A stretch of DNA of 61,380 nucleotides, filler included. It is 4 parts of 4 records of this genome, joined end to end, with 100 filler letters (N's around TTAATTAATTAA, not from the genome) between each part and the next. Parts side by side here need not be neighbours in the genome. Positions count along the whole stretch, not along the records: positions 1 to 22,065 come from SRR20825006_1222; 3 more parts are not named here. The stretch is one strand, 5' to 3'. Both the position numbers and the translations under genes were made by a program. Below, piece by piece: positions 863 to 57,456 of this stretch. How positions within the stretch are numbered: the first letter of the stretch is position 1; the number at the start of each line of letters is the position of its first letter. Below the pieces are notes generated by a model. That model saw only the letters and a program-made list of their open reading frames with translations. It ran no database searches and was not told the DNA's origin.

Positions 863-953
863 GCAAAGTGTGGTCGGTATGGCACCTGCTGACGACTGAT
901 CCATTCTGTGGTATGTTTCGAGACCGAATCGAAATGGAACGCAGGTTGGCGCC

Positions 954-2723: not shown

Positions 2724-3628
2724 CATCTCACCTGCACCCCAGAACCCTCGAGCTACTCGCGGAAAATGCGGAAAGGAAAACCCTTTGGATGAAGGAACCA
2801 AAGTGGACCTCCTACGAATATGCTGATCGTTTATTGAGAGAGATTTCTCTCACTGTAAAACAACCACCGTGTCATCGGATGCCTTCAATGTTGCTGATTG
2901 GAAAGAGCAACAACGGAAAAACGATGATTCTGGAAAGAGCGCTTAAAGCTCATCCCCCGATCACGGATATCGAAGCTGAATCCAACAATGTTCCCGTCAT
3001 ATTTATAACAATGCCCCCAAGACCCGATTTGCGACGTTTTTATTCAATGGTGTTAAAACGTCTGGGGGCACTCTTCAAAGAGTCAGCCGCAACTTCTGTT
3101 CTTGAGATCCAAGCTCTAACTTTATGCGAAAGTCTCGGTCTTCGTTCAATCATTATTGACGAGTTTCACAATGTCGCCCGCTGCAGTGTCCGGTCTCAGC
3201 ACGAGTTTTTGAACATGCTGCGATTTTTAAGCAATGAATTACGCATCTCTTTTGTTGCTGCTGGCATAGACTCTGCAGCACGGGTCATTGCATCTGACCC
3301 CCAATTGGCCAGCCGATTTCGCCCCTATAGTTTGCCTCTGTGGAAAGACGGCGAGGAGTACCGAAAACTTCTCTTTATGATCGAATCCTTGATTCCGTTA
3401 CCCGAACCTTCGTTCCTGTACAAGAACGAGGAAATTGCAAAGATGATCCTCACTGTAGGTGAGGGTAATTTGGGAGATATGATCGATTTTCTGAAAGAAG
3501 CAACTTACATTGCATTTGATGATGGCTCGCCAAGTCTGACAGTTGCTCACTTCAGAGATACTGGCTTTGTTCCAAAGTCCGTTCAGGCAGCAAGGCTACG
3601 TGATTTGGCCAAGCAGTCTCATGACTAG
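2720..3628 (+). CDS. tniB: TniB/TnsC AAA+ ATPase
   Basis: Walker A GKSNNGKT, Walker B IIIDEFHN, FLNMLRFLSNEL and DPQLASRF; ATGA overlap with tnsB. Confidence 0.92.
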   Translation: MTSHLHPRTLELLAENAERKTLWMKEPKWTSYEYADRLLREISLTVKQPPCHRMPSMLLIGKSNNGKTMILERALKAHPPITDIEAESNNVPVIFITMPPRPDLRRFYSMVLKRLGALFKESAATSVLEIQALTLCESLGLRSIIIDEFHNVARCSVRSQHEFLNMLRFLSNELRISFVAAGIDSAARVIASDPQLASRFRPYSLPLWKDGEEYRKLLFMIESLIPLPEPSFLYKNEEIAKMILTVGEGNLGDMIDFLKEATYIAFDDGSPSLTVAHFRDTGFVPKSVQAARLRDLAKQSHD

Positions 3629-4604
3629 CCGCTATTTACCGGTCCGTCCAAGGCCAAAATGCGGTGAAAGCCTATCGAGCTGGATTGTCAGAACGGCGCA
3701 TTTGAACGGGCTTTATCTACAGACATTTTGTGATCTGGTCTGGCCCCTCTATCCGATATGGAACAGGGATACTGATCGTCTGGGAGACTCAAACATTCTC
3801 CGCCAGATGGCGATACTCACGGGCACTTCGCCAGCAAAAGCACTGGCGACCGCCTTTCCATTTTATGAAAAGCTTTTGCTACCGGAAACTTCCCACTCAG
3901 GGTTGCAGCAGGAGATCACCGTTCTTGGGATTTTTCACAGGATTCATAAGAAGTTTGGCCAAACCTATTGTCCACAATGCGTCAAGGAAGAGGGCTACTA
4001 TCAGCTGTTTTGGCGCCTAAATTGCGTTACGGTTTGTACAAAACATCGCCAACGCCTGCTTGATCGCTGTTGGAATTGCGGAGCACCTGTCTGCCTGCAT
4101 CGCGGCGAAATCCACAAGTGCGACAAATGCGGCACGGACCGGCGTGACGCAAAGAGGAATTTGCAGATTGATCCCTATGCCTTCCGACTACAACAGAGGA
4201 TAGATCAAGCAATAACGACGGGGACACTATTCTGGGATGTTCCGGCAGATACGCCAAAGGCATTTCTTCGACTGATTTCTGAGCTTATGCATTGTTGCAC
4301 AGGTCAGGGACACCGCGCACCAAACCTAAGAGAATCCGTCCAAAAATTGATGGGTGGAAATTATGGGCGACTCGATATCCCGGGGGAAAAGCCCAACATT
4401 GGTGTTCTCGATTGTGAAACACGACACCAATTAATGGCACTCGTCGGCAGACTTATTTTCAACTGGCCCTGGAGCCTTATTGCGTGCGGCACGAATGCCC
4501 AGTGTTGGCGATCATACTTTTTGAGTCCGGTTGACGACCCGTGTCACGAGTTACGAGAAGGCACAGCATTGCTGAACTATGACCTCAAAAATCCAGTTTA
4601 TTAA
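3621..4604 (+). CDS. tniQ: TniQ-family target selector
   Basis: N-terminal LPVRPRPKCGESLSSWIVRTAHLN; Zn motifs CPQC, CTKH, CWNC and CDKC. Start ATG 3621 overlaps the tniB stop. Confidence 0.9.
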   Translation: MTSRYLPVRPRPKCGESLSSWIVRTAHLNGLYLQTFCDLVWPLYPIWNRDTDRLGDSNILRQMAILTGTSPAKALATAFPFYEKLLLPETSHSGLQQEITVLGIFHRIHKKFGQTYCPQCVKEEGYYQLFWRLNCVTVCTKHRQRLLDRCWNCGAPVCLHRGEIHKCDKCGTDRRDAKRNLQIDPYAFRLQQRIDQAITTGTLFWDVPADTPKAFLRLISELMHCCTGQGHRAPNLRESVQKLMGGNYGRLDIPGEKPNIGVLDCETRHQLMALVGRLIFNWPWSLIACGTNAQCWRSYFLSPVDDPCHELREGTALLNYDLKNPVY

Positions 4605-6531
4605 TTGCGTGCAAGAGATCTTCTCCCAACTGCTCTCGATATTTGGGGTTTCTCCGAGAAAGGTACGAATAGCATCCAGCTACTTCAACAAGCTCTTCTG
4701 TTCTCGGCCAACCGCCATTTTTTGCACGAACACCGGTGTAAAGAATATCCAGGAGAACATTCTGACCAAGCCATATTTCTTCATCCGGTTTAACCAACAG
4801 GTTACCAAGTTGCAACGGATTATAATGAGGTGGTGCTCGCCTCTCGACACAGAACAAATAGTAATCTGAATCATGAATGTGCAACCTTGCTATTAGAGCA
4901 CAAAGTTGGCGGCTGCTATGGGGCTGAACAAGGTTCCGGGTCCCACCCCACTCAGGTATTTCGATAAGTGAGACCTTGGGATCCACCCGACGCATTGGAT
5001 ACCAATTGTCGGCTAATGTCCAAACGCGCACAGTAGTAGACTCGACCAATGAGAAAAGGGCAGATGCGACTGGGCTAATTGGAAATTCAACTTTGCAGCC
5101 CAACCAATTATCTAGGATTGCTCTGCTTCCATCTGAGCTGGATGGCCGAAGTTGAAATTTTCCATAGCGATAACGATAATGGGGAGCTTGCCCTAAAACT
5201 GGCCGTATTCTTTTGAAAGGTACGTCAACTTTCTGATTAAATAATATCCGCGCCTCTCGAAGTAGACCTTCTGGTGTGTTCACATTTTTAATCAGCCTTT
5301 CTTTGGGATGATCCTCTGGCAGTCTATTATAGCTGGCAGGAGGGAGAGGAGGACCATATACCTCTGTTCTAAGCGCGAGTTCAGGTAGCGGCGTCCATGT
5401 AAAAGTTTTCTGTAGAATGGACTCACCATGGAACCCCGACACGGGGACATCAATTCGGCCGCTTTTATTCGGGCTGACCTTTTCATCTATCTTTTGCTTG
5501 CTTGAGAAATGAAGGCGCGAAACCCGATGCTTGGGTTCAATTGAAACAATCTGAACAGCTTGAACGGCCTGACGATTAATCAACGCCCCGTCGACAGAAA
5601 CATTCATAATACCGTCAGGTTTTGCCTCTGAAGTCGACACACGTCGTCCCAGAAACTCGATCATAAATGGTTCGGTGAATGGAAAGAATGCGGGAAATTC
5701 GGAAAACGCCCGTCCTTCGCTAAACAAAATCCCGACAAGCATCTGAGCCGTCTTCCTGAGGTAGGCATCGGCCCGACCACCTGAGACAAGAAAGTTCGCC
5801 AAATTTATAGCCGCACGAAGATGTGCCGGACTATCACACCTATTCAGTTTGCACTCATACCTTTGACCAATTTGTTTTGGTAACCGTTGAAAAAATCGCG
5901 GCAGTACGGGCTTGGTTGCTCCTTCCAAAAGATACTGGACCAAGATCGATGATTTGTGAAAATAGATCCAAAAAAGGTCGCCAGGACTAAGAAGAACTTG
6001 TTCGTTAAAGTTTGATGCGTAGAGGTTTTGTTCTCCAGGCTGCATCATGATTGCCGACACACGAAACCGAGGGACAATCCATCCTTGATCAACACTAAGA
6101 CTCTTCGGAAAACGGGTGAGCCGCACATCCGACTTTGTTTCACGATGGAGCCAAACATGTTCTATAGATTCTGGGTCAACCCACATCCTGCAGGTCAACA
6201 AGGACTGTTCTTTGGGTAAAATCTGTCTGTGGTAAAAAAGGAGCTGGCTTTCACGAATCTGCGAAAAATCCTTGATCGGAAACCGTCGCAGAACTGCTGT
6301 ATGCGCGTTTGATCTGGCCCATCCGTAAAGATCATGTTCGACTTTTAAAACTGATTCATTGATTTCCAAAATTCGAGCAATCAACCAGATTTGCTGGGAA
6401 TCATAGCCTTCCTCGACCGACAACATACTGTCGTGTCCGACCCCCACAAAATCGAGCAGATACTGTGGGTGTTCAAATTCTCTCGCGACATACGCAGGAA
6501 TGCTTTTCAGTTCGGCACTAGTCTCTTTCAT
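4585..6531 (-). CDS. Large hypothetical protein, possibly a divergent TnsE-like target selector
   Basis: ~648 aa from ATG 6531, which overlaps the recombinase stop (the ORF track starts it at 6735). The segments DLFWIYFHKSSILVQYLLEG, FFPFTEPFMIEFLG and C-terminal ALIARLHIHDSDYYLFCVERR...GVRAKNGGWP resemble, from memory, TnsE-family patterns; adjacent to tns genes. Confidence 0.4.
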   Translation of the reverse strand: MKETSAELKSIPAYVAREFEHPQYLLDFVGVGHDSMLSVEEGYDSQQIWLIARILEINESVLKVEHDLYGWARSNAHTAVLRRFPIKDFSQIRESQLLFYHRQILPKEQSLLTCRMWVDPESIEHVWLHRETKSDVRLTRFPKSLSVDQGWIVPRFRVSAIMMQPGEQNLYASNFNEQVLLSPGDLFWIYFHKSSILVQYLLEGATKPVLPRFFQRLPKQIGQRYECKLNRCDSPAHLRAAINLANFLVSGGRADAYLRKTAQMLVGILFSEGRAFSEFPAFFPFTEPFMIEFLGRRVSTSEAKPDGIMNVSVDGALINRQAVQAVQIVSIEPKHRVSRLHFSSKQKIDEKVSPNKSGRIDVPVSGFHGESILQKTFTWTPLPELALRTEVYGPPLPPASYNRLPEDHPKERLIKNVNTPEGLLREARILFNQKVDVPFKRIRPVLGQAPHYRYRYGKFQLRPSSSDGSRAILDNWLGCKVEFPISPVASALFSLVESTTVRVWTLADNWYPMRRVDPKVSLIEIPEWGGTRNLVQPHSSRQLCALIARLHIHDSDYYLFCVERRAPPHYNPLQLGNLLVKPDEEIWLGQNVLLDILYTGVRAKNGGWPRTEELVEVAGCYSYLSRRNPKYREQLGEDLLHAINKLDF

Positions 6532-7483
6532 CTTGATCGAAACCTGCTCCAAGACTTGCGATGACTTTTCGGTAAGCATTACCATCGACGCCAGCAATGT
6601 ATGGCAAAAGGCCCCTTTCGGTGCGATGGTGAGTGACATTGAGAATGTCACCATTCGTGACACCTGCATGGTGAGCTGCCGTAATGAACCCGCGTCGTAA
6701 TGAATGGGCACCATACTCTTCCTGCGGCGCTCCAAGTTTCCCCATCAAATGTTTTATGAGGCGGTAAAGATATCGGTCGGAAACGTGCTGCATGGTGGGA
6801 GCATGTGCCGCAATTCGAGGAAAGCAGAATGGACTGCTGTCCGAGAGCTCAACATGTAATGCACTTAGCACTGACCATGCACACAATGGTGAAGAAACTC
6901 TCGGAACAAAACAGCCATCAATTGCTTTACCTGATTTGCTCCAACCTGTGGTGATACAGAACCCCTCTTCCTCAAATCGGATGTTACTCCATTCCAGGCA
7001 GACCAACTCCGATCGACGCATCGCGCTTGCAAAGCCAGTCAGCAACATCGCGCGATCCCGTCGACCCTTTAGGGTTTCTGGAATAAGTTTCAACGCTTGG
7101 AGAAGCGTGTCAGGTTGGATTTTGCGTTTAGGTCGATTGATATTCTTTTTTGCACGTCGACACCCTTTCAGGAGGCGAGCCAAAAGCTCGCGATCGTCCC
7201 TTACCGCGCACCCGGCAAGTCTTAGATGATGCCGGATCGCCGAGAGGTCTTGTGTCAGAGCCGACATGCCTACTGTCCGGGAACGCTCTGTGAGAAACAG
7301 ACCGATTGTCTTGGCCGAAGGAGCGCTCTGTACCAAGCCGTGCAACCTGCACCAATTCTGATATCGTTTCCAAGCAGCTTGGTATCTTCGACGCGTAGAT
7401 GTTGCCAATGCAGTGTCGACAAGATCGCCGGCCGATGCCGCCAGACTAAGAAGGTAAGACTGCTCCGTACTAGGCCGATTCAT
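6518..7483 (-). CDS. Cre-like tyrosine recombinase (site-specific integrase/resolvase)
   Basis: SAM-like N-terminus (STRRRYQAAWKRYQNWC). Catalytic set present: RDRAMLLTGFASAMRRSEL (R), SKS (K), HSLRRG (HxxR), THH (H) and LLPYI (Y). Confidence 0.9.
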   Translation of the reverse strand: MNRPSTEQSYLLSLAASAGDLVDTALATSTRRRYQAAWKRYQNWCRLHGLVQSAPSAKTIGLFLTERSRTVGMSALTQDLSAIRHHLRLAGCAVRDDRELLARLLKGCRRAKKNINRPKRKIQPDTLLQALKLIPETLKGRRDRAMLLTGFASAMRRSELVCLEWSNIRFEEEGFCITTGWSKSGKAIDGCFVPRVSSPLCAWSVLSALHVELSDSSPFCFPRIAAHAPTMQHVSDRYLYRLIKHLMGKLGAPQEEYGAHSLRRGFITAAHHAGVTNGDILNVTHHRTERGLLPYIAGVDGNAYRKVIASLGAGFDQDERD

Positions 7484-7602
7484 GGGACTGCTCCAAGGGA
7501 AGAAGCGAGCTGAATTCTGCCGCAGATTGAAGAATTCCTCAAGATTTTGACGCAACACGCTCCCAGAATGCAATCATCAAGCTTCACGCATTTCGGAAAC
7601 CG

Positions 7603-7760: not shown

Positions 7761-7913
7761 TTAGTCGAGAAATATCTGCCGCATTTTGGGTTAAGTCGTA
7801 TGTTTTGGGTGAGTAGCAAAAGGGTATAAGATACTCGTAATGTAACGTCGTCGCATGCGCGTATTGCGTTCAGGATGACGCTCAATTTGTGCGTTGGCAG
7901 GAGGGGGAACTGC

Positions 7914-8357
7914 ATGAGCCACACCCAAGAAGATCCACTATCAGAGAGCGTCCAGATTGCTCATCTGACCATGCTGCAAGGTACCATCGCCAGGATGGGA
8001 TCGAACTCATTTTCACTCAAAGCACTCTCTGCAACATTTGGAAGTGCTGCCGTCGCTGTGACGGCTTCAGTTGATCATCCTACCCTTTACTATGCTGTCT
8101 CGGCTGTCATTCCGATCCTGATTTTCTGGATGATGGATGCACAATATATCCGATACGAGCGCGCCTTCAGAAAGTTGTTTGATCATGTCCGGAAAGGTCA
8201 ATCCATAGAGCCTTACAGTATCGATCCCGCTCCTTTTATGAAGGATATTGGGCCGGTTCTTAACCTTGCCTTATCGTGGTCAGTATTTCCGTTCTACGGG
8301 GCAATATTGCTAAGCTTCGGATTGGTTGTGTCGTTGATTCTTGATGGGGGCTCCTGA
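7914..8357 (+). CDS. Small multi-pass membrane protein, putative effector of the adjacent TIR
   Basis: AGGAGG RBS; HLTMLQGTIARMGSNSFSLK and FWMMDAQYIRYERAFRKLF motifs; about three hydrophobic helices; stop abuts the TIR start. Confidence 0.7.
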   Translation: MSHTQEDPLSESVQIAHLTMLQGTIARMGSNSFSLKALSATFGSAAVAVTASVDHPTLYYAVSAVIPILIFWMMDAQYIRYERAFRKLFDHVRKGQSIEPYSIDPAPFMKDIGPVLNLALSWSVFPFYGAILLSFGLVVSLILDGGS

Positions 8358-9002
8358 ATGTCTCTTGCAGCAAGCTTGCGTATCGACCCACCGCAGAAGC
8401 GACGTGTGTTCTTCTCGTTTCATTATCAACAGGACATTTGGCGCGTTAACCAGATCAGGAATTCTTGGCGCTATCAGCGCGAAGCACAGCGCGAAGCCGC
8501 AGGCTTTTTTGATGGTAGTATCTGGGAAAGATCACAACGCACAAGCGATGAGTCTCTCAAGACCCTCATTCGCGAGGGCATCAGCAACACCTCCGTCACA
8601 TGTGTATTAGCCGGACAACATACCTATGCGCGACGCTGGGTAAGATATGAAATTGCCCGCAGCATTATCAAAGGGAATGGCCTTCTCGTCGTTCAAATCC
8701 ACAACTGTAGAAACCGGCTTGGCTATACCTCCCAGCCAGGCCCCAATCCACTCGACCATATGGGAACCTATCTCACGAACGATAACCGAATTCTTCTCGC
8801 CGAAAGAAACAACCAAAGTAACTGGGTGAGATACGATGACTATACACAAGCTGTTTCATTACCCGGAGGATGGCAAGTACCGACTTCTAACGTGGTCATC
8901 CCGTTAAGCAGCTACGCAAATCAGTATTGTTATGTTGCCCATAACGGTCCGGCCAATTTCGCAACATGGGTCAGTAACGCCGCAGCTTTTGCAGGCAAAT
9001 AG
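8358..9002 (+). CDS. ThsB-like TIR-domain protein (DUF1863 type)
   Basis: RRVFFSFHYQQD, GFFDGSIWE and NTSVTCVLAG..TYARRWVRYEI, with the catalytic Glu retained. Confidence 0.9.
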   Translation: MSLAASLRIDPPQKRRVFFSFHYQQDIWRVNQIRNSWRYQREAQREAAGFFDGSIWERSQRTSDESLKTLIREGISNTSVTCVLAGQHTYARRWVRYEIARSIIKGNGLLVVQIHNCRNRLGYTSQPGPNPLDHMGTYLTNDNRILLAERNNQSNWVRYDDYTQAVSLPGGWQVPTSNVVIPLSSYANQYCYVAHNGPANFATWVSNAAAFAGK

Positions 9003-9712: not shown

Positions 9713-10327
9713 CTACCGCCTTAGAACAGCATATCTCTGAATCGGATTGTTTTTGTTTTCGGGCACGTGCACATATGCGCACAGATATCTTTCTCCCGAA
9801 CTCGTCTCACATTTATCGAGTTTGCTGTTCTTGACCAAATTCAGGAACTCAACCTCTTTCGCAAACCACGCATATTCCGCCCTCTTGGCTTCCAAGCCGA
9901 AGAGCGGTCTAAAGTAAAAATATCCTCCCGTGATCAGAGCCAAGATCAACACAATAAACAGCGCCTGAACGCCAAGGATCGGCCACAGGAGTTTCCGCGC
10001 TTTTTGCGTCATGTTGGCCGTGACAACTTCCGCACATTTCTGCGCCTTCTCTGCTTCCTTATACATTGACGATATGTCGGATTTCACCGTCTCACCGATA
10101 TTGCGCGCAATCGGATCCATAGCCTGTTGCAAAGCAGTCGTTGCCAGACTGGTCTTGGTTGTGACCACAAAGCGATCAACTGCATTGCGCAGCTCAGTCG
10201 CAGCCTGCAGAGAGATTTCCCTGTCCTCGTCAGCAAGCTTCATCATATTGTAGAAAGCTTCCATCGCCTCTTCGAACTCTCTGGAGGTCTTCGAAAATTC
10301 GTTCATTTCCTCTGTACTCGCACTCAA
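9713..10327 (-). CDS. Plasmid mobilisation accessory-like membrane protein
   Basis: Coiled coil, then a single TM helix, then a C-terminal C..G..LC..V...Y.VL pattern seen in plasmid Mob accessory proteins (by recollection). Confidence 0.45.
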   Translation of the reverse strand: MSASTEEMNEFSKTSREFEEAMEAFYNMMKLADEDREISLQAATELRNAVDRFVVTTKTSLATTALQQAMDPIARNIGETVKSDISSMYKEAEKAQKCAEVVTANMTQKARKLLWPILGVQALFIVLILALITGGYFYFRPLFGLEAKRAEYAWFAKEVEFLNLVKNSKLDKCETSSGERYLCAYVHVPENKNNPIQRYAVLRR

Positions 10328-10337
10328 TCTTTAAACC

Positions 10338-11060
10338 TTAGAACCCTATTGAATGGCCTCTGTCGCGTTCTATCCCTTGTGAGCGGCTTCGTGTTCGGCT
10401 CATCACATTCTCACGCTGTAACACTTGTTCATGTTGCAGTTTTTCGAGCTTTTCACGTGTCATCGTGAATTGGCGAATATCGGGCAGCGTCACAAATTTA
10501 AGCGTGCCGGAAGTCGTGCCCCCAACGATGATAAAACCGCCGCTCGTGCCTGTATCACCCTCGACACCATCAACTGCTTTGTAAGCTTGTTGAACCAGTC
10601 CGAGATAATGGCAACATTCTTCACCCGTGATACCACGATCGCGAACAAGTGTGCCCTCAAGAAGGACGTCGACAATGCGCTCGAGCCGCACGGATTTAAG
10701 TTCAGATTGGAAGTCGAGATAGGGTGAACACCGCGTTGCCAGATGCTCTCCGTTGAGTTCACTTTCAATATAAAGGTGTGTTCCTCGAGAAACTTCAAGG
10801 TAGCGGGGATTGTCCTGACTGAGATAGCGCTGAAGAAACGCGAGCTTCTGAGCCTCCTTGGTACCCTTATTGGCACGGCGCTTGAACTCAAGTAGATAAT
10901 AGACGTCCGGCATACCGATCAGCACATCGGCCAGTGACTTGTCCATTGGGGTTTGTTGAAGAAGATTAATATTAGTGGGCATACTGAACGCTTTCTGTCC
11001 GGCACGAAAGCCAAGCGCGTAGATAAAGCCGCCGATGACGACATTTTCGTAGATATCCAT
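10338..11060 (-). CDS. PD-(D/E)XK nuclease-like protein with Arg-rich C-terminal tail
   Basis: E (YENVV) ... ADVL ... LLEFKR nuclease-like motif; tail RENVMSRTRSRSQGIERDRGHSIGF; GAGG RBS before ATG 11060. Confidence 0.5.
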   Translation of the reverse strand: MDIYENVVIGGFIYALGFRAGQKAFSMPTNINLLQQTPMDKSLADVLIGMPDVYYLLEFKRRANKGTKEAQKLAFLQRYLSQDNPRYLEVSRGTHLYIESELNGEHLATRCSPYLDFQSELKSVRLERIVDVLLEGTLVRDRGITGEECCHYLGLVQQAYKAVDGVEGDTGTSGGFIIVGGTTSGTLKFVTLPDIRQFTMTREKLEKLQHEQVLQRENVMSRTRSRSQGIERDRGHSIGF

Positions 11061-11131
11061 TGGATCCTCAGGAAAGGGGGCGCAGCGCAAGACTGGAGAA
11101 ATGGAATCACCCCAAGCAGCCGCCTGAAGGC

Positions 11132-11740
11132 TTAACTGGCGAGAAGCTTTTTAAGGTTATCCCAGTTCCATCGATAGAGTTGACCTGCATCGGGCACACG
11201 CGTGTAATTACCGGCTTTATAACCGATCATTTGTATGATTTTGATGTTGCGGGCTCTAGCCATTCGAATTTCCTTGAGAACTCCCTGCGCTTTCCATGTG
11301 TGAGGGCCCACCAGAACGAGCACAAGGTCAGAACGAGCGATCGCCGCATCTGCTTTGCGTTCCCAGTCTTTCTCCGGTGCAGCTTCTTTCAGTGATAGAT
11401 CGACAATTTCAAAGGGTGAATCAGGCAGCCTAGACTGACCAATAATGAAGGTCTTCAGCATCCTGTCATTGTCAAAGTCGAAGCTCACAAAGACTTTCTT
11501 CTTCGCCATCTCATTCTCCTGTGACGTTTTTCCAAACAGATATCCAAATGCTCCACCAACAAATAAACCGACCCCTGGAGCAAGTGCATGACCAATCACA
11601 CTCCCGACGCCAGTTGCAATCGTCAGTCCCGCAGATTTCTGATCAAAGGTACCCTGATGAGATCGGCAAAATCGATCATCGCTCACTGCGATCTTGTGGC
11701 AGCGACGGCCCGATCTGGTCTTGGCTTCACATTGTGCCAT
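11132..11740 (-). CDS. TIR-domain protein with N-terminal CCCH Zn-knuckle and glycine-zipper TM segment; internal start at 11509
   Basis: CEAKTRSGRRCHKIAVSDDRFCRSH, then GVGSVIGHALAPGVGLFVGGAFGYLFG, then the TIR (KKVFVSFDFDND...GVLKEI). An AGGAGA RBS precedes the in-frame ATG at 11509. Confidence 0.8.
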   Translation of the reverse strand: MAQCEAKTRSGRRCHKIAVSDDRFCRSHQGTFDQKSAGLTIATGVGSVIGHALAPGVGLFVGGAFGYLFGKTSQENEMAKKKVFVSFDFDNDRMLKTFIIGQSRLPDSPFEIVDLSLKEAAPEKDWERKADAAIARSDLVLVLVGPHTWKAQGVLKEIRMARARNIKIIQMIGYKAGNYTRVPDAGQLYRWNWDNLKKLLAS

Positions 11741-11778: not shown

Positions 11779-12363
11779 CTATTCACCAGCCCATTTCGAA
11801 AAATGGGTGTACCCATCATCGGCGATCCATCGGTAAGTCGGAAAGTTCATCTGCGACAAAGGCATAATCCTGCCATGTAAACCCGCAGGTACAGGCGTTG
11901 ATCGGTTCCAGCGATCAAGTTCAGCAAAAACAGACCAGCCATTCTTTCCCGCGACATAGGGGGTCATCGAGCGGCCGTCCTCTGAAAACCCAAGGGCCGT
12001 GTATTCAAACGGGTTTACACCAAGTGCCTTGGTTTGCCGATCTCGTCCCCGAATTTCATTGATATGAACACCAAACAGGTAGTTGCCTTTTGCTATACTC
12101 TTGAACATCTCATAGTGCACCCATTGACGCGCATAGGTCTGCGAACCAATCAACACGCAGGTACAGGAAGTATTTGTCAGACCGGCATTGATCAGGCGTT
12201 TGATGGCCAAATTGCTGTCTTTCCTGGCCTCTTCCCAAACTGAAGCATCAAAGAAGCCTGCTTCCCCGCGGTTCGGTTTGGTCATCCAATGATTGCGCAC
12301 GACATTGGCGCGGAAATCCGCAACATCCTGATAGTGGAACGAGAAGAAAACGCGTTTGGCCAT
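11779..12363 (-). CDS. ThsB-like TIR-domain protein
   Basis: MAKRVFFSFHYQDV, GFFDASVWE and NTSCTCVLIGSQTYARQWVHYEM: a canonical Thoeris TIR. Confidence 0.92.
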   Translation of the reverse strand: MAKRVFFSFHYQDVADFRANVVRNHWMTKPNRGEAGFFDASVWEEARKDSNLAIKRLINAGLTNTSCTCVLIGSQTYARQWVHYEMFKSIAKGNYLFGVHINEIRGRDRQTKALGVNPFEYTALGFSEDGRSMTPYVAGKNGWSVFAELDRWNRSTPVPAGLHGRIMPLSQMNFPTYRWIADDGYTHFSKWAGE

Positions 12364-13026
12364 TCAGACCTCCCCACTGGACTGATCAGAAATGATGGGA
12401 GCAGGAATGGTTACGGCCCGACGCTTGAAGTCGCGTGCGTCTAACGGCGAAATGCCAAGCCGCTCGTGGAAAAGATGAGAAAAATCACACCCTTCAATCA
12501 TCGGTCCGTCTTCGGCATTCAGTGAAAGCGCCAATTTACGTGCCGCCCCCCCCGCAGCACCAACCGGGACCGTTTGTATGTCGGGATGATAGCTTGTTAT
12601 CAGCTCAAACTCATCGAGAATGCCTTGTTTACCACCGATGAACACTGCTGCTTCAAATGCGGTTTCGCCAAACATGCGTTCCCGCATATGCCGCAGGCTT
12701 GCAGAAAGATCTGGCTTTCCGTCCGCATCCGAAATCGTATCTGTCACAACGATATTGTTGAAACGAGCATTCTCATCAGGAAACTCGTCTTCAAAATATC
12801 CGCTCTGATAGAGCTTAACCGCCTCGGCGTAATCGACACCCAAGTCTTCACATACCGTCCAAACCATTGGGGTGATGGCCGGATGCCCACCCCAGACAAG
12901 CTGGCACCGACCCAATACGGTGGTCATAAACTCGCGCACAGCGAATTGGATCAGATAGGGATCGGCGTCAGTCGCAAATTCACTTGTTGGCTCAGGAACA
13001 CTGGCCGAGAGAAACACAGCCTTCAT
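12364..13026 (-). CDS. Stand-alone SLOG-domain protein (cluster-3 type; ThcA-like)
   Basis: VFLSASVP, LVWGGHPAITP, LYQSGYF, SLRHMRERM, AVFIGGKQGILDEF and GAAGGAA are typical SLOG motifs; translationally coupled to the TIR genes on both sides. Confidence 0.85.
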   Translation of the reverse strand: MKAVFLSASVPEPTSEFATDADPYLIQFAVREFMTTVLGRCQLVWGGHPAITPMVWTVCEDLGVDYAEAVKLYQSGYFEDEFPDENARFNNIVVTDTISDADGKPDLSASLRHMRERMFGETAFEAAVFIGGKQGILDEFELITSYHPDIQTVPVGAAGGAARKLALSLNAEDGPMIEGCDFSHLFHERLGISPLDARDFKRRAVTIPAPIISDQSSGEV

Positions 13027-14183
13027 TACCGATCTCCTTCGTGATAATCGGCCAATTGCCATGCGGTTTCATGCAACTTGATATATCGAACCGGCGCAAT
13101 CATCTTCTGAAGCCAATCGATATGTCCTTTCGAGTGTTCATGTAATCCTACCTCGTCATAGACTACGACGGCTTCGTCAGGTGATTGTTTCATCACTTCG
13201 TGCAAGTGCAACGAGGTCGGGACTCTTATGGTTGGATGCAGAACACACTTTCGACCGTCGGCAAGTTCAAGCAGGATCGAATGACCAGAACCTTTGCCAA
13301 GGACCTGTCCACCGATCATTTCGACGCTTTCACGGATCTTGCTGTAGAAATTCAAACCACGAACCGCATGGCTTTTGCTGCGAAGTGCCTCAATATCCTG
13401 ACAAAGTTCGTCAAGACAACCTGCATTAAGCTGCTGACCATCAGGTTCAAAATGGTCACTGGTCAGCGTACGCACGCTGTGAGCCGCATGTTGGCGAGAC
13501 GGTGTATGGTCTGGCCAACCAATTCGGTAAATTGGGATTTGCTTGGCCAGGGCCCGGCCAAACTCGGCCGACGTCCACCGGCTGTCGAAATAGTCGGGCG
13601 TATCGAGCACAACCAGAACATCACTGTCGCACAGATTATGCCAGAGCATCGCCTGAAAATCCTCACCAGGCGCGATTTCATGGGTATCGAGAAAGACGTC
13701 GAAGACACGAGAGGATAGCGCATCGAACAATTGCAAGGCGGCTGCACGTGATTCCGTGCGTCGATAGCTCAGAAACACGCGACGCTGGCGCGACATAAGT
13801 CCAACCGCCTCCAGCAGTGCGGTCACCACGCGTCCCATACCCTGTTCGGGTTCATCAATACCAACGGCATTCAAAGGCTGCAAGACGCCAGGAAGTTCAA
13901 GAGTGGCGCCCCGGAGAAGGCTCACCACAGGTATGCATGGGACACCGTGATCTAGGATCCTTTTGACGTCTTGCTCAGCTGCCCCAACGGCACCAAAATA
14001 GACCATCGTCGTCGCGATCCGCGGATCATGGGTGTATTCGGCGGATGGGTAGTTGATTTCCACCTCTCCTCCGAGAGCCAGACCAAACGGTCTCAAGTGC
14101 TCAGCCAAACGTCCCGTTAATTCGGTAAGCTGAACTGGCGTAGGTGTACCTCTACATAAAATCCGGTAAAGCACGTTCGTCAT
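13026..14183 (-). CDS. Multi-domain TIR protein (central TIR_2)
   Basis: RRVFLSYRRTES, FDVFLDTHEIAPGEDFQ and SDVLVVLDTPDYFDSRWTSAEF; uncharacterised N- and C-terminal domains. Confidence 0.88.
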   Translation of the reverse strand: MTNVLYRILCRGTPTPVQLTELTGRLAEHLRPFGLALGGEVEINYPSAEYTHDPRIATTMVYFGAVGAAEQDVKRILDHGVPCIPVVSLLRGATLELPGVLQPLNAVGIDEPEQGMGRVVTALLEAVGLMSRQRRVFLSYRRTESRAAALQLFDALSSRVFDVFLDTHEIAPGEDFQAMLWHNLCDSDVLVVLDTPDYFDSRWTSAEFGRALAKQIPIYRIGWPDHTPSRQHAAHSVRTLTSDHFEPDGQQLNAGCLDELCQDIEALRSKSHAVRGLNFYSKIRESVEMIGGQVLGKGSGHSILLELADGRKCVLHPTIRVPTSLHLHEVMKQSPDEAVVVYDEVGLHEHSKGHIDWLQKMIAPVRYIKLHETAWQLADYHEGDR

Positions 14184-14199
14184 CACACTATCCAAAATA

Positions 14200-14700
14200 C
14201 TATCGAAGATAGAACCCTTTAGTGGTTCCCGGTTCAAAACGGCCCAGACCTCCTCCAGGCACTTCTTCAATCCGTTGATACAGTCCTAAATACTCGTTCC
14301 CGTGTGTTTGGAAACTATCAGTTGTGGGAATAATCAGTATATTTTTTCGGGATTTCGCCCCATTGGCATACCCAATTTCCCAAGGGCACCATTTTGATTC
14401 CGACGAATTTCGAGTTGCCAGATAGAGAAAATGCGATCGAGTTTTAATTTGTTCTTGAATGCGAGTTGCCGTTTCTACGGTAGGTCGTTCTGGCATGTCT
14501 TCGTCCAACCAGTCGATGTAAACATCCCAACCTAGCCGCTCCGCATAGTTGCGAAAACCGATCGCTAAACTACGATCATAATGGCTATGACACAAAAACG
14601 CCGTTTGAGTCCCTGCTACAACGGCTCCATGAAAGCTCCGACGAACAGTAGTTGATGACGCTTGAGCATTCTGACGTAGAGTATCTTGTGAAATTGCCAT
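14200..14700 (-). CDS. TIR-domain protein (TIR_2)
   Basis: AFLCHSHYD, DVYIDWLD and FLYLATRNSSESKWCPWEIGYA. Confidence 0.88.
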   Translation of the reverse strand: MAISQDTLRQNAQASSTTVRRSFHGAVVAGTQTAFLCHSHYDRSLAIGFRNYAERLGWDVYIDWLDEDMPERPTVETATRIQEQIKTRSHFLYLATRNSSESKWCPWEIGYANGAKSRKNILIIPTTDSFQTHGNEYLGLYQRIEEVPGGGLGRFEPGTTKGFYLR

Positions 14701-15030: not shown

Positions 15031-18000
15031 TTAAGCACTTGTATCCGCCACAGAGGTTTCTGGAGAGAGACCAGCAGTAGGTTGGATTGACCACTCAACC
15101 CCTTCGTGACCAACGCCTAATAAGTTCAGAGTAGTGCAAGGAACCTTGCGGGAGCGGAATTTTCTCCGAAGGAATTCAGCTTGACCGATATCATGAGTAG
15201 ATAGAATAATTTGATACCCTTCTTCTTTTGCCAAATTGCCCATCAGATCCGCAAAAGCGGCTGAATGTATGGAATCGTTGTGCTGAAGAGGATCGTCAAG
15301 GATGAGCGCTTTCCATTTTGACCACTGGAACGTAAGGCTCGCTGCACAAAGCATACTCACGGCCAACGCAGACAACTGTCCTTCGCTATGAATTAGCTTT
15401 GGATCAACACTCTCTGAAATTAATTTCCCTTTTACAGCTCGTTGTTTGATCTTTCTTCCTTTTACTTCCAAATCAATGCCTACGTCCCGGTCACATAATA
15501 TCGCTTGATTTATGTTTTTCATTAACTTGCTTAACGGAAGAATATACTCTTTATTAAATTCTGAGAGAGATTTTGAGATCTTTTGGCTAGCCGACTTTGC
15601 GATCTCTTTTACATAATTTGTTGCCTTTACATCTTCATCTAGTTTTTGAAGATATTTTTTTGCACGCATTAACGTCTCGTCTCTCTCAAAGTTTGGGGAA
15701 AGATCGATAGCCTTGCGGATTCTTTGTAAAATCGCTTCGTGGGTTTCTCGCCATTTTAAAACGTTCTCATTTTCGCGTAAACGTTCAAGGCGCAGCTTTA
15801 TTTCGTCGAAGAGTTGATTAATCTCGGTAATCTCTTTGCTCTTTTTATGCAGCGAGGAGCTATTAGCTTCCAAACCGTAATCACGAAGCCCGCGCCAACG
15901 ACTTTCAATTTCTTGTAGCAACACCTCTTTCTCTTTCTGATTGTCTTGAATCGTTTTTAGCCTTGCTTCAACAGCGGCTTTTTCTTCTAACTGTGTACTT
16001 AATTTACTACGTGCTTCGGAGAGCGTCTTATCTGCTGTTCTCAAGTCGTCCTGCGCCAAAGCGAGTTCAAAGTCCGCTTCGATCCACAATGCATACACAC
16101 CATTTTGAGATTCTAGTTTCTCATCATTTTCAAGATTCAAACGAGCACGTTCTAAACGGTTAGATGCTTGCTCACACTCCTTGGAGGCTTGCTCCAAATC
16201 TCGAACTGATTTAGTGAGATCGTCTTCAGATTGTTGAAGTTCATCCCTCAAGTGTCTGATACTGCTATCTCCAGAAAACCCAGTTTTTATTACCGTTAGC
16301 CAATGCCTTTTCCTGTTCAATTTTTTAGTTGCGCGGTTCATATGTTCAGCCAGCTCACTTTGTACTGCCGACAGCTTCTCGATAGACGCTTGCTCAGTCC
16401 AATCGAGCTGCCTCAGTAATTCGTCGAGCCTGCCTCGCTGAGTTTTCAATTGCTCTTGAGCCAACGCGAGTTCACTGGAAGCCGCTTCCAAACGTGCAAC
16501 CTCTGAGGACCAATGATCTTGATCCTCGATCATTGATGCTAACAGCTCCTCTTCCCTTACAAGAGTTGGGGCCAATCTCTCGACAGCATTATCAATGCGC
16601 TCTCGCAAGCCGGAAGCATCTTTGAACTGCGTTGCGCAAAGCGGACATTCACACGCCTCACTGGACAACTCGATGGCTAATGTGGCAATTGCCTGTGAAA
16701 TTGCGTCAACCGTTCCACGCATATTCTCCACGACTTCTGTTTGTTGGTCGACGGCACCAGTTATGTTCTCAAGCCCGTTTTTCGTATCGAGAAGTCGTTG
16801 CTCTGTAGCCGGATTGGACTGAAGCAAAATTGTATAGTTTTCGGAACACATTTTGACATGTTCCATGCAAGCGATAGCCTCGGAGAGAAGAGAAATACGT
16901 GTGTGAGCTTTCGTGATCTCGTGACTGTATTCTTCTATATCCGTGGATAGCCGACGAATAATCTCCATCCGACGAATTGCGCGACTGTAATTCGCCTGAG
17001 CTTTGTCACGGCTTTTTCTAGCACTGAATACTCTATCCTGAGTTATGTGCACGCCTGCTGCAAACTGAGAATATTCGTTTGAGCCTTTATATACAGCACC
17101 TAGCCGTTCAGATTTTTTTTGCGCTTTTTGCATACTTTCAGTGAGCCGCTCCACTTGCAACTCGCTTTCATGTACTTCTCTCTGGCAGGCGTTGAGGCGC
17201 CCATTCAAAGAAGCCAGCGCTTTCTCGACCTGATTGCTAGACGCAACAAGTTCTTCAATCTCTGCAACTACATGTCCCTGTCGTGCGATTAGGTTTTCCC
17301 CAAGTACTGTTTGATGTCGAACTTGGACGCACCAAACTTCGAGTTTTTCTATTGCTTGCTCTATAACCTCCCTAGACAAATTGCCCTTTGTGAGTTGAGC
17401 GTTGTCGTAAAAAAGTAAATTTTCCGAGCATTGATTTAGTGTAAAGGCAATTTCCCTGAGTTCTCTCTCTACAAAGCTTTCGTCGAGCCCTCCTAAGGAG
17501 CTGATGTCATTCCAATAACGTTGTTCCTGCTCGATAAGAGACTCCAGCGGGCCCTTCTCAGCCTCTATCCGATCGATCTCGGCTTTATAGGCGCGTACAA
17601 CGCTATCATTACGTTGCCCATAGAAATTATCAGCTATGGCCTGAATAGAAGCACTTTGGGCAGCTTCGTGCAGAATTTCAAAACCACGCTTAGGATCCTG
17701 ATTCGTTAGCCTTGACATGGTGGTCTGGCCAAGGAAATGAGTCAGTAGTAAATAGGACCCGATATCAGAAATTTTGCTCTGCCACTCTGGTGCACGCAAG
17801 AACTCAACGATGTCAGACACATCCCCAGAGAGTCTAGATTTGTTATTGCCGTGAGCTGCCAACTCTCTCGTAATAATTTTACTCTTTTGTCCATCAGAGA
17901 AGGCCAAAGCGACACTAGTTGCTTCGGTACTGTCATTCCCACGTCGACAAAGATATCTCTCTGGCTTATCTGCGCCAGCGACTCTTTCGAATTGATCAAT

Positions 18001-18165
18001 ACTGCCCGCCAAACTCCACTCTAAGGCGTTGAAGAGCGATGATTTCCCTATTCCATTACTGCCATGAACGATAAGAACTCCCGGTTCAGGCGGCAGGTCT
18101 ATATCAAGATGTGAAAAGCTCCTAAACTGTTGGAGGCGGATGTTTTGAAGGTATAATGAGGTCAC
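15031..18165 (-). CDS. lmuB: SMC/Rad50-like ABC ATPase (Lamassu LmuB / ABC-3C sensor)
   Basis: Walker A GSNGIGKSS, long coiled coils, CPLC zinc hook, signature HSEGQ, Walker B LILDDPLQHND and STHD. Confidence 0.85.
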   Translation of the reverse strand: MTSLYLQNIRLQQFRSFSHLDIDLPPEPGVLIVHGSNGIGKSSLFNALEWSLAGSIDQFERVAGADKPERYLCRRGNDSTEATSVALAFSDGQKSKIITRELAAHGNNKSRLSGDVSDIVEFLRAPEWQSKISDIGSYLLLTHFLGQTTMSRLTNQDPKRGFEILHEAAQSASIQAIADNFYGQRNDSVVRAYKAEIDRIEAEKGPLESLIEQEQRYWNDISSLGGLDESFVERELREIAFTLNQCSENLLFYDNAQLTKGNLSREVIEQAIEKLEVWCVQVRHQTVLGENLIARQGHVVAEIEELVASSNQVEKALASLNGRLNACQREVHESELQVERLTESMQKAQKKSERLGAVYKGSNEYSQFAAGVHITQDRVFSARKSRDKAQANYSRAIRRMEIIRRLSTDIEEYSHEITKAHTRISLLSEAIACMEHVKMCSENYTILLQSNPATEQRLLDTKNGLENITGAVDQQTEVVENMRGTVDAISQAIATLAIELSSEACECPLCATQFKDASGLRERIDNAVERLAPTLVREEELLASMIEDQDHWSSEVARLEAASSELALAQEQLKTQRGRLDELLRQLDWTEQASIEKLSAVQSELAEHMNRATKKLNRKRHWLTVIKTGFSGDSSIRHLRDELQQSEDDLTKSVRDLEQASKECEQASNRLERARLNLENDEKLESQNGVYALWIEADFELALAQDDLRTADKTLSEARSKLSTQLEEKAAVEARLKTIQDNQKEKEVLLQEIESRWRGLRDYGLEANSSSLHKKSKEITEINQLFDEIKLRLERLRENENVLKWRETHEAILQRIRKAIDLSPNFERDETLMRAKKYLQKLDEDVKATNYVKEIAKSASQKISKSLSEFNKEYILPLSKLMKNINQAILCDRDVGIDLEVKGRKIKQRAVKGKLISESVDPKLIHSEGQLSALAVSMLCAASLTFQWSKWKALILDDPLQHNDSIHSAAFADLMGNLAKEEGYQIILSTHDIGQAEFLRRKFRSRKVPCTTLNLLGVGHEGVEWSIQPTAGLSPETSVADTSA

Positions 18166-18806
18166 TTCCCTTTCCTCCAGGCATCAACAAGTTTAGGGAT
18201 CATAAGGAGAGGCCGGTCATTGAACTTTCGGGCATGCTCAACCCATTGTTTCGCTGTTTTTGCAGATAAGCCCTCCCCGATTAGGACCCGTTCAACTAAG
18301 CCTTGATTGTGATCTAGAGGCGCGTTATTGACCATGTCGTTCTTCCGCCAAGGGCGGGCCAAAAACGTGCGCGAAATCAGTTCTGCGCAAGAAAACCCCT
18401 CCTTATCACCAGCCGTCCAGACCAATTTTCGGCAAACAGCCTCATCTCGCTCAATCAGATCAATCAAGACACGCCAATCCGAGGCTTCGTCAATGACTGT
18501 GCCACGCAGTATAAGGTGGGTGTTAATGACTTGGTTCGCTTCCATATAGGAGCGCGCGATAACGACTTGATTGTGAAACTGTTTGATTGCTTGCTTTACT
18601 TGGTCAGTCTCACGCAAATCTATCTCACCGGCAAGCACAGGATAATCTCCGAGCTGAAGGCCGACTACCTTGCCAGGAAGCACAACATCCGCAGTGCCTT
18701 CTCGTCCTTTAAACTGTTTGCTGGCATAATCTGGCATCGGCTTAGTTTTCCAGCCGAGAGCTCGAGATGTGCTGATCAGTTCGTCACAGAACTTTTCAAG
18801 ACTCAT
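18162..18806 (-). CDS. ABC-three-component middle component (LmuC-like)
   Basis: 214 aa with 4-nt overlaps to both neighbours; IERDEAVCRKLVW motif; position between the effector and the SMC. Confidence 0.7.
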   Translation of the reverse strand: MSLEKFCDELISTSRALGWKTKPMPDYASKQFKGREGTADVVLPGKVVGLQLGDYPVLAGEIDLRETDQVKQAIKQFHNQVVIARSYMEANQVINTHLILRGTVIDEASDWRVLIDLIERDEAVCRKLVWTAGDKEGFSCAELISRTFLARPWRKNDMVNNAPLDHNQGLVERVLIGEGLSAKTAKQWVEHARKFNDRPLLMIPKLVDAWRKGK

Positions 18807-21169
18807 CTACTCACCTCCTTGAGGGCTTCATCCTGGCGCTCGTGATACTTCTTAAACTCGCTCTCTATCGCCGAAGTCCATTCAGTCACATCTTGCTGTA
18901 ACTTTTTACGCCACATCAGGTTGTTGAGAATGATGACCGGATGCACGCGCCGCGGACTCTCAAGCATGTCAAATGCCATTCCACCATCTTGGATCCTTCC
19001 GTGCTCATCTGGTCTTGCCAATTCTGATGTACCTGACAGTATCAAAGCATCAGCGGTCCACTCATCGGGCAAATAGCTATCTGCCAGCTGCAATGACCCA
19101 ATCTTCCGACAGCCAGATCCAAGAGCTCTCGAGCTTTGATTAAACGACAAATTGCCGTGCTCCTTATCGTCCACCGGATCTAGACTCTGTCCAAGGCTCG
19201 TACCAAGCATCAGGAGAAGCGCATCAACTAAATCTCCTATTCTCTCACGATCACCTTCCCATGGTGACTGGTTGGGACCAACACTGTTGAGCCACCGCAG
19301 AAAGCTTGACCGCAACAGAGGGCCAGTTTGCAACGCCTTGTTCCAGCTTGTCCAAATTGGTGAAATCTGAGCAATGATCGACGGATCAATTTTACCGAGT
19401 GCAGTCCAGTTACTATTCTGTAAAACGTCAGTTATCCGCGCATCGAGTAGTCGCAGAAGACATTGATCAATGGCGTCCGAGAGACCAGAGGTGTCGAGTT
19501 TTCGAGCAGGAAAATGACAAAAAACATCGTTCTGCGACATGGTAGCATTGTACAGCTCCCGCCATTGGACAAGTACTGCGTCAGTGGCGTACAATTTAAT
19601 CCGTTCATGATTAGCCTTGATCATACGTATAATGTCTGAACTTTCAGACACTTTGTCTGGAGGGAGAGTCACTAATAGATGGACGTCTTCTGTGAGTTGA
19701 TCACATTTGCGTGCAACATCGAGCAAACGCTCACTCCCTTGTTCATACAACTGATGAGTTGCTGAATCCTGACCGATGACAATCGTCGATTGGGCACGTG
19801 CTAAACGTTCTTTCTCGGAAGTTTTTGCTGCCTGATCTTTCAAGTTCTCAATTTCGAGTGTCTTGAAAAATTCAAAGGTTTCTGCTCTCAGTGCCGGAAT
19901 TTCGTCGCAAAGTCCGTGCTCATTAACATGCGCCTTATAACGATCAAAATATTGCTCAACAGGCTTATAGCGGCCTGCTCGATCAGGTCCGTGACGCAGA
20001 TAAACTCTGTCATAATTTTGCGTCAGGACTTGCCCCTCAACCAGTGGCCCTAGCACTTTAAATTTGTCGTTTTCCTTGCAAACGTCGGCGACCTTGCCAA
20101 CACTTCTTGTGATCTTGAGCTTCTTCTCCTTTGCTGCCTCGAGAACGGAAAAAGCCATCACTTGATTGAGCTGGGCAGCTTTGCCAGCAACGAAAAAGGG
20201 GCCATCGCTATTAACTGTGATTTCGCGATCAGTTCTTAATTGATGCTGAAGTTTAGTTAGGACATTGCGCTCAGAGAGTAACGGCGTGAGATATGTATCG
20301 AACGCTTTTTCTAGATTATCCTCTGCTTGGCCTTCTGCGTATGCTTTTTCCGTCTCTTGCCACAAGGTTTCACCCTCAAAATATGAGAGAAACCTCTCGG
20401 TAAAAGATAGGTGCTCGTAATCAAGAACCACCAGATTGATAAAGTCTGTAAGGCCACCATCACCGTTACCGCTCACAAAATAGTGAGCTGGACTGTGTTC
20501 TTCTGCTGCCGTAGCGCCGGTAGAGTTATGTTTCCAATAGTTATGCTTTTCGGCAACGCCACAAGAAGTCTCATGACCAAATCCAATTGCCAAAATCACA
20601 TGCTTGAATATGTGTTTGTCTTCTTTTCCCCGCGAGTCGAGGAACTCTATTCCCCACTCTGAGTCACCAGATCTTGTGACGCATTTTAATTCACGCTGGC
20701 TAGTAAATCTAAGATTCGTCAATGCAGCATCAGCAAAACCAAAATACTTCAGGAGTTCTTTTTGTACTTGCTCCCCCGTCATCGCTTCCCAAGTAAGGAT
20801 GGGGAGGTTGGCCCGAGACTCCAGTGATCCAAGTTTCGGCCACTCATAGATGTGCGGGTGAAGCATTCGAGGTGAGCTGCTTTGTAACTGAAGAACAGTC
20901 TCTGCAGGATCAAACAAGAACGCGTTTGCCCCCACAAGCGCAGTTGCAACTGCTGCGGTAACACCCGCTGCGCCAGCTCCGACAATGGCTACGTCATGGT
21001 TTTCCGAGAGCCTTCCGGTCTTCTCCAATGCGTGGATTAACTGCAACGCACGAACTTGCTGAGAATAGAAGGTAATTCGCCGATCAAAGGTACCCAAAAA
21101 ATACAGGCCTTCGTCTCCCGGGATGCCGGCTGATTGCAGCCAATCTTCGAACGGACAAGCAGAGTTCAC
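18803..21169 (-). CDS. FAD/NAD-dependent oxidoreductase (FMO-like) effector with C-terminal domain (Lamassu LmuA-like)
   Basis: Rossmann VAIVGAGAAG, LHPHIYEWP, ILAIGFG and a second nucleotide motif VSGNGDGGLTD; first gene of an effector-middle-SMC operon. Confidence 0.75.
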   Translation of the reverse strand: MNSACPFEDWLQSAGIPGDEGLYFLGTFDRRITFYSQQVRALQLIHALEKTGRLSENHDVAIVGAGAAGVTAAVATALVGANAFLFDPAETVLQLQSSSPRMLHPHIYEWPKLGSLESRANLPILTWEAMTGEQVQKELLKYFGFADAALTNLRFTSQRELKCVTRSGDSEWGIEFLDSRGKEDKHIFKHVILAIGFGHETSCGVAEKHNYWKHNSTGATAAEEHSPAHYFVSGNGDGGLTDFINLVVLDYEHLSFTERFLSYFEGETLWQETEKAYAEGQAEDNLEKAFDTYLTPLLSERNVLTKLQHQLRTDREITVNSDGPFFVAGKAAQLNQVMAFSVLEAAKEKKLKITRSVGKVADVCKENDKFKVLGPLVEGQVLTQNYDRVYLRHGPDRAGRYKPVEQYFDRYKAHVNEHGLCDEIPALRAETFEFFKTLEIENLKDQAAKTSEKERLARAQSTIVIGQDSATHQLYEQGSERLLDVARKCDQLTEDVHLLVTLPPDKVSESSDIIRMIKANHERIKLYATDAVLVQWRELYNATMSQNDVFCHFPARKLDTSGLSDAIDQCLLRLLDARITDVLQNSNWTALGKIDPSIIAQISPIWTSWNKALQTGPLLRSSFLRWLNSVGPNQSPWEGDRERIGDLVDALLLMLGTSLGQSLDPVDDKEHGNLSFNQSSRALGSGCRKIGSLQLADSYLPDEWTADALILSGTSELARPDEHGRIQDGGMAFDMLESPRRVHPVIILNNLMWRKKLQQDVTEWTSAIESEFKKYHERQDEALKEVSR

Positions 21170-47423: not shown

Positions 47424-47523
47424 NNNNNNNNNNNNNNNNNNNNNNNNNNNNNNNNNNNNNNNNNNNNTTAATTAATTAANNNNNNNNNNNNNNNNNNNNN
47501 NNNNNNNNNNNNNNNNNNNNNNN
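47424..47523. other. Artificial contig linker
   Basis: Same spacer; strong shift to AT-rich sequence after it. Confidence 0.98.
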
Positions 47524-49711: not shown

Positions 49712-49864
49712 AGAAACTTGTTTTACATTAAGGCATAGCATATTTGCAGTACTAAACCTGGTAGTTTTTAAATCGTAGCAAATGTAAAGTAATGTTTTTT
49801 TATAGGTAAGAGTTTAGCTGATGTTTGTATTACTAAAGTTAAGATATTCTGAGCTAAAAAAAAA

Positions 49865-51761: not shown

Positions 51762-51779
51762 ACCGTTTTGGGGATTTTA

Positions 51780-56232: not shown

Positions 56233-56237
56233 AACAA

Positions 56238-57449: not shown

Positions 57450-57456
57450 TTTCTCT

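Follow-up and report, generated by a model that had tools for sequence, protein, structure and literature searches.

Can one gene of a Thoeris operon supply both a membrane-associated TIR protein and its own TIR-only form? The question is raised by a minus-strand gene at 11132..11740 of the window, the whole 61,380-nucleotide stretch of DNA analysed here. An earlier note on this DNA had proposed that ATG 11740 opens an in-frame fusion of a zinc knuckle and a glycine-rich hydrophobic stretch to a TIR domain, and that a second start within the gene may yield a soluble isoform. The frame does run from ATG 11740 to the stop codon TAA 11132 and encodes 202 amino acids (22.4 kDa), predicted to comprise a CCCH knuckle, a glycine zipper and a ThsB-type TIR. 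The TIR begins at Met78, whose codon, ATG 11509, is preceded, as the note had read, by the Shine-Dalgarno (SD) sequence AGGAGA (11515..11520, minus strand); the spacer is 5 nt. Initiation at this codon would give a TIR-only isoform of 125 aa (11132..11509, minus strand) that retains the catalytic Glu157 (long numbering; 11272-11270); its computed mass of 14.3 kDa, together with that of the full product, agrees with the ~14 and ~22 kDa that the note had anticipated. NCBI records carry annotations of both the 125-aa and the 202-aa product (P0011, P0002), and a Thalassospira tepidiphila protein (WP_338186320.1) is 99% identical to the N-terminal 77 aa of the window protein.

A ThsB-type TIR at the end of a type III Thoeris operon

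Residues 84-171 match Pfam ThsB_TIR (PF08937) with 31.5 bits against a cut-off of 21.2, and the best Foldseek matches of the domain are 8fz9 (E 9e-7), EcThsB (8wcf, E 4e-5), 9b7d and 6lhy; no NCBIfam model matched the fused protein of the window at 1e-5. E157, assigned as the putative catalytic glutamate by where it lies in the fold, does not vary among 58 fused sequences. Judged from its sequence, the gene product is a ThsB-type TIR of the Thoeris kind with an intact predicted catalytic Glu, and it shares with Thoeris ThsB proteins (PF08937) the TIR fold, the invariant glutamate and an operon with a SLOG effector. Production of an ADPR-derived signal on infection, and phage defence by the window gene, are predicted; because ThsB-type TIRs adjoin dedicated effectors, making a second messenger is a more likely role for this domain than acting as a killing NADase or pore.

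The gene is the last of five in a minus-strand operon. It is preceded, in order of transcription, by a ThsB-type TIR of 166 aa (14200..14700; family match), by ThcB4, the long TIR protein of Thoeris type III (13026..14270; NF058526, 395.3 bits against a cut-off of 220), by the type III SLOG cluster 3 effector ThcA (12364..13029; NF058525, 212.3 bits against a cut-off of 110; PF18180) and, immediately upstream, by a second ThsB-type TIR of 194 aa (11779..12363; family match). Thoeris type III is defined, in the available text of two sources, by a SLOG effector with multiple TIRs (10.64898/2025.12.03.692087; PMC13276650), and the former describes its signalling as uncharacterised; the window operon, with the ThcA SLOG effector and four TIR genes, fits this definition. 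The operon sits in a Tn7-like defence island, with Lamassu/ABC-3C upstream and PDC-M50 and tnsA/B/C/tniQ downstream.

The fusion recurs as a conserved subfamily

To the window we added 144 fetched loci, and 105 remained for classification once 39 with a TIR below 100 bits and one without an anchor had been left out. Forty-three of these are fused, 60 have the TIR alone and two have the zipper only, one of them cut by a contig end (L084) and the other decayed (L005); the metagenome loci are the best 80 of 278 when ranked by their resemblance to the long protein, a choice that enriches fusions, so these counts are not frequencies. The architecture whose recurrence the earlier note had suggested checking is present, with both starts and the SD, in 43 loci. 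Since these include 28 non-redundant genes, all less than 85% identical pairwise, the observed architecture is beyond chance. Among 125 proteins from the TIR search, 33 carry over 40 residues ahead of the TIR, in nearly every case including the knuckle and zipper module, and the top ESM Atlas match is a cluster of 305 members (198 aa, ThsB_TIR 99%, score 0.95).

Even close pairs have diverged by ~40% at synonymous sites. Measured over 13 non-overlapping pairs, dN/dS amounts to 0.07 in the TIR, 0.15 in the knuckle, 0.24 in the zipper and 0.39 in the linker. By script, 42 of the 43 loci keep the first start, placed 2-3 codons ahead of the first Cys; the 43rd (L090) was mis-anchored by the script and reads MPRC at its first start. 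Retention of the first start, together with purifying selection on the N-terminal module, argues that the long form is a real protein. By these sequence measures the fusion is a conserved subfamily whose N-terminal module is under purifying selection.

A separate effector gene lies near all 44 fused loci examined for neighbours, namely the type I SIR2-SLOG protein ThsA (34 loci), a type III effector (7) or a PDC-M50A-like transmembrane (TM) protein (3), and the fused gene is directly upstream of ThsA in 30 loci. Since the module moves with the TIR across these three effector types, a sensing or regulating role is more likely for it than that of a killer. A quick tree, in which 9 of 96 branches are starred, implies 11 changes between the fused and standalone states, at least three of them forced by starred branches. 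An apparent tie between fusion and soluble effectors (41/44 fused loci, against 17/50 standalone TIRs with an effector) was no longer supported when relatedness was counted, which left three independent pairs (p = 1). Searches of viral contigs, phages and plasmids returned no fused relative, and none of the matches listed, in proteins of 189-2000 aa, joins the module to another domain, which is weak evidence.

The PDC-M50A-like TM family adjoins 33 of the 58 standalone TIRs of the clade. The one locus scanned for this carries a SLOG-patatin fusion as the effector beside its TIR (L068:7623-9302), and long SLOG proteins similar to it occur in five others (L012, L025, L121, L124, L143). Upstream of the fused TIR in L093, L099, L103, L104 and L125 lies a conserved two-gene pair, ahead of a type I Thoeris operon, that encodes proteins of ~360 aa and ~182 aa, the latter with a C-terminal winged HTH.

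A basic zinc knuckle precedes a predicted membrane hairpin

The knuckle (11657..11731, minus strand) has the form C4-x9-C14-x10-C25-x2-H28; the earlier note was right that a CCCH knuckle is present and had miscounted the first spacing as C-x7-C. It carries a net charge of +4, which is also the median across the family, and is modelled with pLDDT 82-88. Its matches to known families fall below the curated thresholds: 17.3 against a cut-off of 26.3 for DUF5763, and 23.2 against 29 for HGGxSTG (NF041373), a model matched at E<=0.05 by 32 of 41 family members. A DUF5862 match in the window protein is likewise below the Pfam cut-off. The top three profile matches of the knuckle to solved structures are MCM10 CCCH fingers (best E 0.24, not significant), one of them from a complex with ssDNA, and MCM10 CCCH fingers also account for all its Foldseek matches at E<=10 (best E 0.36, prob 0.91, not significant). 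Further weak matches are to the GvpO N-terminus and a terminase small subunit family, and VIA-align gave no match for the knuckle at Z>=2. The pattern C-x9-C-x10-C-x2-H is common to the window knuckle, the MCM10 finger, DUF5763 and HGGxSTG, with weak matches in sequence and fold; the window protein lies under the curated cut-offs of the latter two, and any DNA binding here is putative. The knuckle also occurs as an appendage in L153/L160, L161/L162, L155 and L158, on proteins that by their sequences look like wax-ester synthases, acyltransferases and Lys-rich histone-like proteins.

The zipper (residues 36-70; 11531..11635, minus strand) is an uncharged run of 35 residues, 29% of them Gly, within which lies the glycine motif that the earlier note had quoted. 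G46, G50, P55, G56, G58 and G62 are each conserved in at least 90% of 41 sequences, and across the family the median uncharged run is 32 residues with a central PG. The uncharged run and central PG turn are as expected of a membrane hairpin, though hydropathy is moderate: the best 19-residue window reaches 1.5 in the window protein, and 20 of 28 genes reach at least 1.6. On this pattern the long form is probably membrane-associated. The AlphaFold model with the TIR is confident for that domain and fair for the knuckle; in both models the zipper has a pLDDT below 50, and a complex prediction of four N-module copies with zinc, run with no alignment used, scored 0.00 and counts neither way. The glycine-zipper families PF05433, PF13488 and PF13441 produced only sub-threshold matches, in standalone relatives; PDB profile matches to prion and MscL segments are compositional (E>=0.27) and were set aside.

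The internal start looks to be under selection

In all 43 fused loci an ATG, GTG or TTG lies 3-8 codons upstream of the F-V-S-F-D strand. In the 28 non-redundant genes the codon is ATG in 18, GTG in 8 and TTG in 2, so that every one of the 10 genes without ATG carries GTG or TTG, against a background in which GTG makes up 25% of Val and TTG 19% of Leu codons. Codon usage would produce this outcome with a probability of 3e-6 if the genes were independent; they are related, so its true weight is smaller, and it is weakened further because a single step separates GTG and TTG from ATG. On the quick tree, 44 fused rows imply at least 8 switches between ATG and non-ATG codons at this position.

The SD is stronger than in synonymous shuffles in 25 of the 28 genes (-7.0 vs -5.0 kcal/mol), and in the window gene it reaches -7.4 against -4.1 kcal/mol for the shuffles; by contrast, a control Met conserved inside the TIR beats its shuffles in 14 of 27, showing no excess. 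The excess at the junction (-2.0) is the strongest of 29 offsets, the next lowest being -0.8, and a start codon with an SD of -5 kcal/mol or better occurs at the junction in 86% of genes, whereas no sampled window of the module exceeds 21%. The internal SD is close to that of standalone TIR starts (-7.9, n=59) and outdoes the first start in 24 of 27 genes (-7.0 vs -4.0 kcal/mol), the first-start SD being -3.2 in the window gene and -4.0 in the family mean. Junction mRNA is also less folded than its shuffles in 23 of the 28 genes. Kinship among the 28 genes means that p-values overstate these contrasts. The pattern is that of internally translated, Cas11-type products, a conserved in-frame start with a selected SD, and it is absent from three divergent lineages.

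Taken together, these data suggest that the internal start is under selection and that two products are likely made from one gene. The two-isoform proposal of the earlier note has gained partial support in this way, through the recurrence of the fusion, purifying selection on the N-terminal module and nucleotide-level selection on the internal start.

An internal promoter was also considered as a source of the short form. RNA contigs of one sample cover 11187-11541 without the module and contigs from other runs span the junction, which is uninformative; no sigma-70 site was found at the junction (1 in the region, against 4.3 expected).

The module and the junction start are each missing from some lineages

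In three loci the module has been damaged while the TIR and its internal start are intact and lie next to an effector: a stop codon stands just before the SD in L068, the module is frameshifted in L005, and the zipper has decayed in L113. These natural losses fit a selected internal start. Relics were sought in 8 pairs, each made with the nearest fused locus: L113 and L005 gave a positive result and 6 of the 8 pairs a negative one. A further 58 TIRs of the same clade stand alone without the module, which argues that it is not needed for signalling.

Conversely, 12 of 48 fused proteins lack M, V and L at the junction, as read from their protein sequences. They form three divergent lineages, found by a profile-free HMMER search and represented by P0126, by P0147 with the P0157 cluster (P0157 being 44% identical to the window protein) and by P0149, and all keep the catalytic Glu. 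From these three lineages it follows that the short form is not universal; predicted short-only, long-only and dual forms all exist, and the dual form is dominant among closer relatives.

The earlier note had also named an observation that would count against it, namely a 77-residue part occurring only as an independent gene or as unconserved sequence. The part is found fused and conserved, and standalone small proteins of 75-107 aa with knuckle and zipper exist too (P0131, P0134, P0138, P0140, P0142, P0145, P0158, P0161). The standalone module had no full-length match in 401 + 401 genomes of two phyla, in plasmids or in viral contigs, the last giving zipper-only matches of which 1 in 24 reached the end of the knuckle. 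Searching the ESM Atlas with P0142 returned no usable match.

A proposed nucleator made with its own amplifier, and the alternatives

How might the two forms work together? We propose that the two starts would yield the long form as a minor product and the TIR-only form in larger amounts; that the hairpin would place the long form at the inner membrane, where its basic knuckle could sense a phage cue, be it the DNA of the phage or some protein found where it enters; and that the long form would then nucleate a TIR assembly which the short form extends. Such an assembly would build composite active sites, there an ADPR-derived signal would be made from NAD+, and the signal would activate the neighbouring effector, ThcA with ThcB4 in the window and the SIR2-SLOG protein ThsA in most relatives. 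The available text of earlier work reports that TIR NADase activity depends on self-association (PMC11204291), that one ThsB is able to recruit a second and activate it (PMC12578639) and that Cascade obtains additional small subunits by internal translation (10.1101/2020.04.18.045682). We regard this account, a fused ThsB-type TIR with two starts giving a minor long nucleator and an abundant TIR-only form, as the best explanation and, taken whole, as somewhat probable. For the part of it that would make the long form a nucleator rather than a brake, we would put the chances slightly short of even. A bolder version seems rather doubtful: that across a whole ThsB subfamily one gene encodes both receptor and amplifier, a membrane-tethered zinc-knuckle TIR that would sense phage DNA or entry machinery and seed assembly of its own internally translated TIR, the two ribosome-binding sites fixing their ratio and the whole being transferable between type I, type III and TM-effector Thoeris systems.

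The long form might instead be a brake, its knuckle and hairpin capping or sequestering TIR assemblies until a phage cue arrives and the short form being the working sensor-enzyme. N- or C-terminal extensions of ThsB are indeed proposed, in the available text of one source, to contact phage components and to block TIR self-association in uninfected cells (PMC11204291). Short TIRs suffice on their own in the 58 standalone loci, and separate knuckle and zipper proteins of 75-107 aa exist. Against this reading, L005, L068 and L113 tolerate loss of the module with an intact TIR by an effector; made from the weaker start (24/27), the brake would also be the minority product, and the long-only lineages keep the catalytic Glu. 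We consider this reading improbable. A further notch down, and quite improbable, is the idea that the forms are independent sensors without co-assembly, the short TIR seeing the phage protein that its standalone relatives see and the long form another cue, with a wider range as the result. Both pure states do exist (short only in 58 loci, long only in three lineages), several TIRs are often found together in a Thoeris operon, and the phage proteins recognised differ between TIR systems according to the available text of PMC11350192; yet this idea gives no reason for retaining one shared gene over at least 8 start switches when operons readily hold extra TIRs.

Two simpler accounts would dispense with one of the products. 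If the long protein alone mattered, the internal Met and SD would be leftovers of gene fusion or by-products of a Glu/Gly/Arg-rich linker, as the existence of a standalone module, a standalone TIR and lineages without a junction start might suggest; a conserved Met inside the TIR that follows Lys-Glu codons also has SD-like pairing in 68% of genes. The start codon nevertheless persists in 43/43 loci despite the ~40% synonymous divergence and a linker dN/dS of 0.39, and the SD excess over shuffles is confined to the junction with none at the control Met, making this account very unlikely. We view as extremely unlikely the remaining proposals, that only the short TIR is made or that the long form acts as an effector which forms pores or depletes NAD. 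The weak SD of the first start (-3.2 in the window gene, mean -4.0) and the NCBI records carrying both the 125-aa and the 202-aa product favour the former, which is opposed by purifying selection on a C-C-C-H and glycine pattern in frame with the TIR; as for the latter, a killing role would be redundant, because a separate effector gene is near all 44 fused loci.

Relation to described systems

The parallel for two products is drawn from CRISPR: in Cas10d/Cas11d and in types I-B and I-C, one defence gene gives a large and a small in-frame product through an internal start, as the available text of bioRxiv 10.1101/2020.04.18.045682 describes. There the small product is a proven structural subunit, whereas in the window gene it would be a whole catalytic domain and is predicted only. 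The logic proposed for the long and short forms resembles that of S. aureus ThsB1/ThsB2, in which the sensor TIR brings in a second TIR and activates it; these, by contrast, are two separate genes with a capsid trigger, and the available text mentions no knuckle or zipper (PMC12578639).

The CCCH knuckle, the glycine zipper and the conserved internal start are features of the window subfamily that we did not find described for Thoeris ThsB TIRs. A literature search for a glycine zipper with a TIR domain, anti-phage defence and Thoeris showed no such case among the matches listed, within a scope of mainly open-access papers; within the same scope, searches found no mention of DUF5763 or HGGxSTG and nothing relevant on internal starts with Thoeris or anti-phage defence. 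In running text, 'zinc' is absent from 10.64898/2025.12.03.692087, PMC11350192 and PMC11204291; 'start codon' is absent from the text of the first two, 'glycine zipper' from that of the first and 'glycine' from that of PMC11204291. Supplementary ThsB cluster tables may include the fused subfamily. The combination of knuckle, zipper and conserved internal start appears new relative to described ThsB and is well supported at the level of sequence.

How ThsB proteins detect phage and stay silent otherwise has been explained for only a few systems. In this subfamily the candidate sensing module is a discrete unit, and it comes with a built-in genetic handle: a one-codon or silent change could remove each isoform. 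If the proposal is true, internal translation would reach beyond CRISPR Cascade into TIR signalling. There is a practical point too, since annotation gives either a 125-aa or a 202-aa product, and screens that clone or recode ORFs could lose an isoform and misjudge the system.

Other features of the window

A complete Lamassu/ABC-3C system (LmuB, LmuC, LmuA) occupies 15031-21169 on the minus strand, with an FAD-oxidoreductase-like effector fused to CTD2. On the plus strand, a PDC-M50A TM gene and a ThsB-type TIR at 7875-9002 form a second Thoeris-like pair. The low-GC defence island is bounded at 20-7573 by Tn7-like tnsA/B/C/tniQ, a 716-aa ORF without a family match and a tyrosine recombinase. 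Downstream of the fused gene, 9713-11090 (minus strand) holds two ORFs without family matches, one of which, of 240 aa, ends in an Arg/Ser-rich tail that we take to resemble those of mobilisation proteins. Elsewhere in the window, GC falls abruptly to 27-39% across a polysaccharide biosynthesis cluster at 47472-61340 (minus strand).
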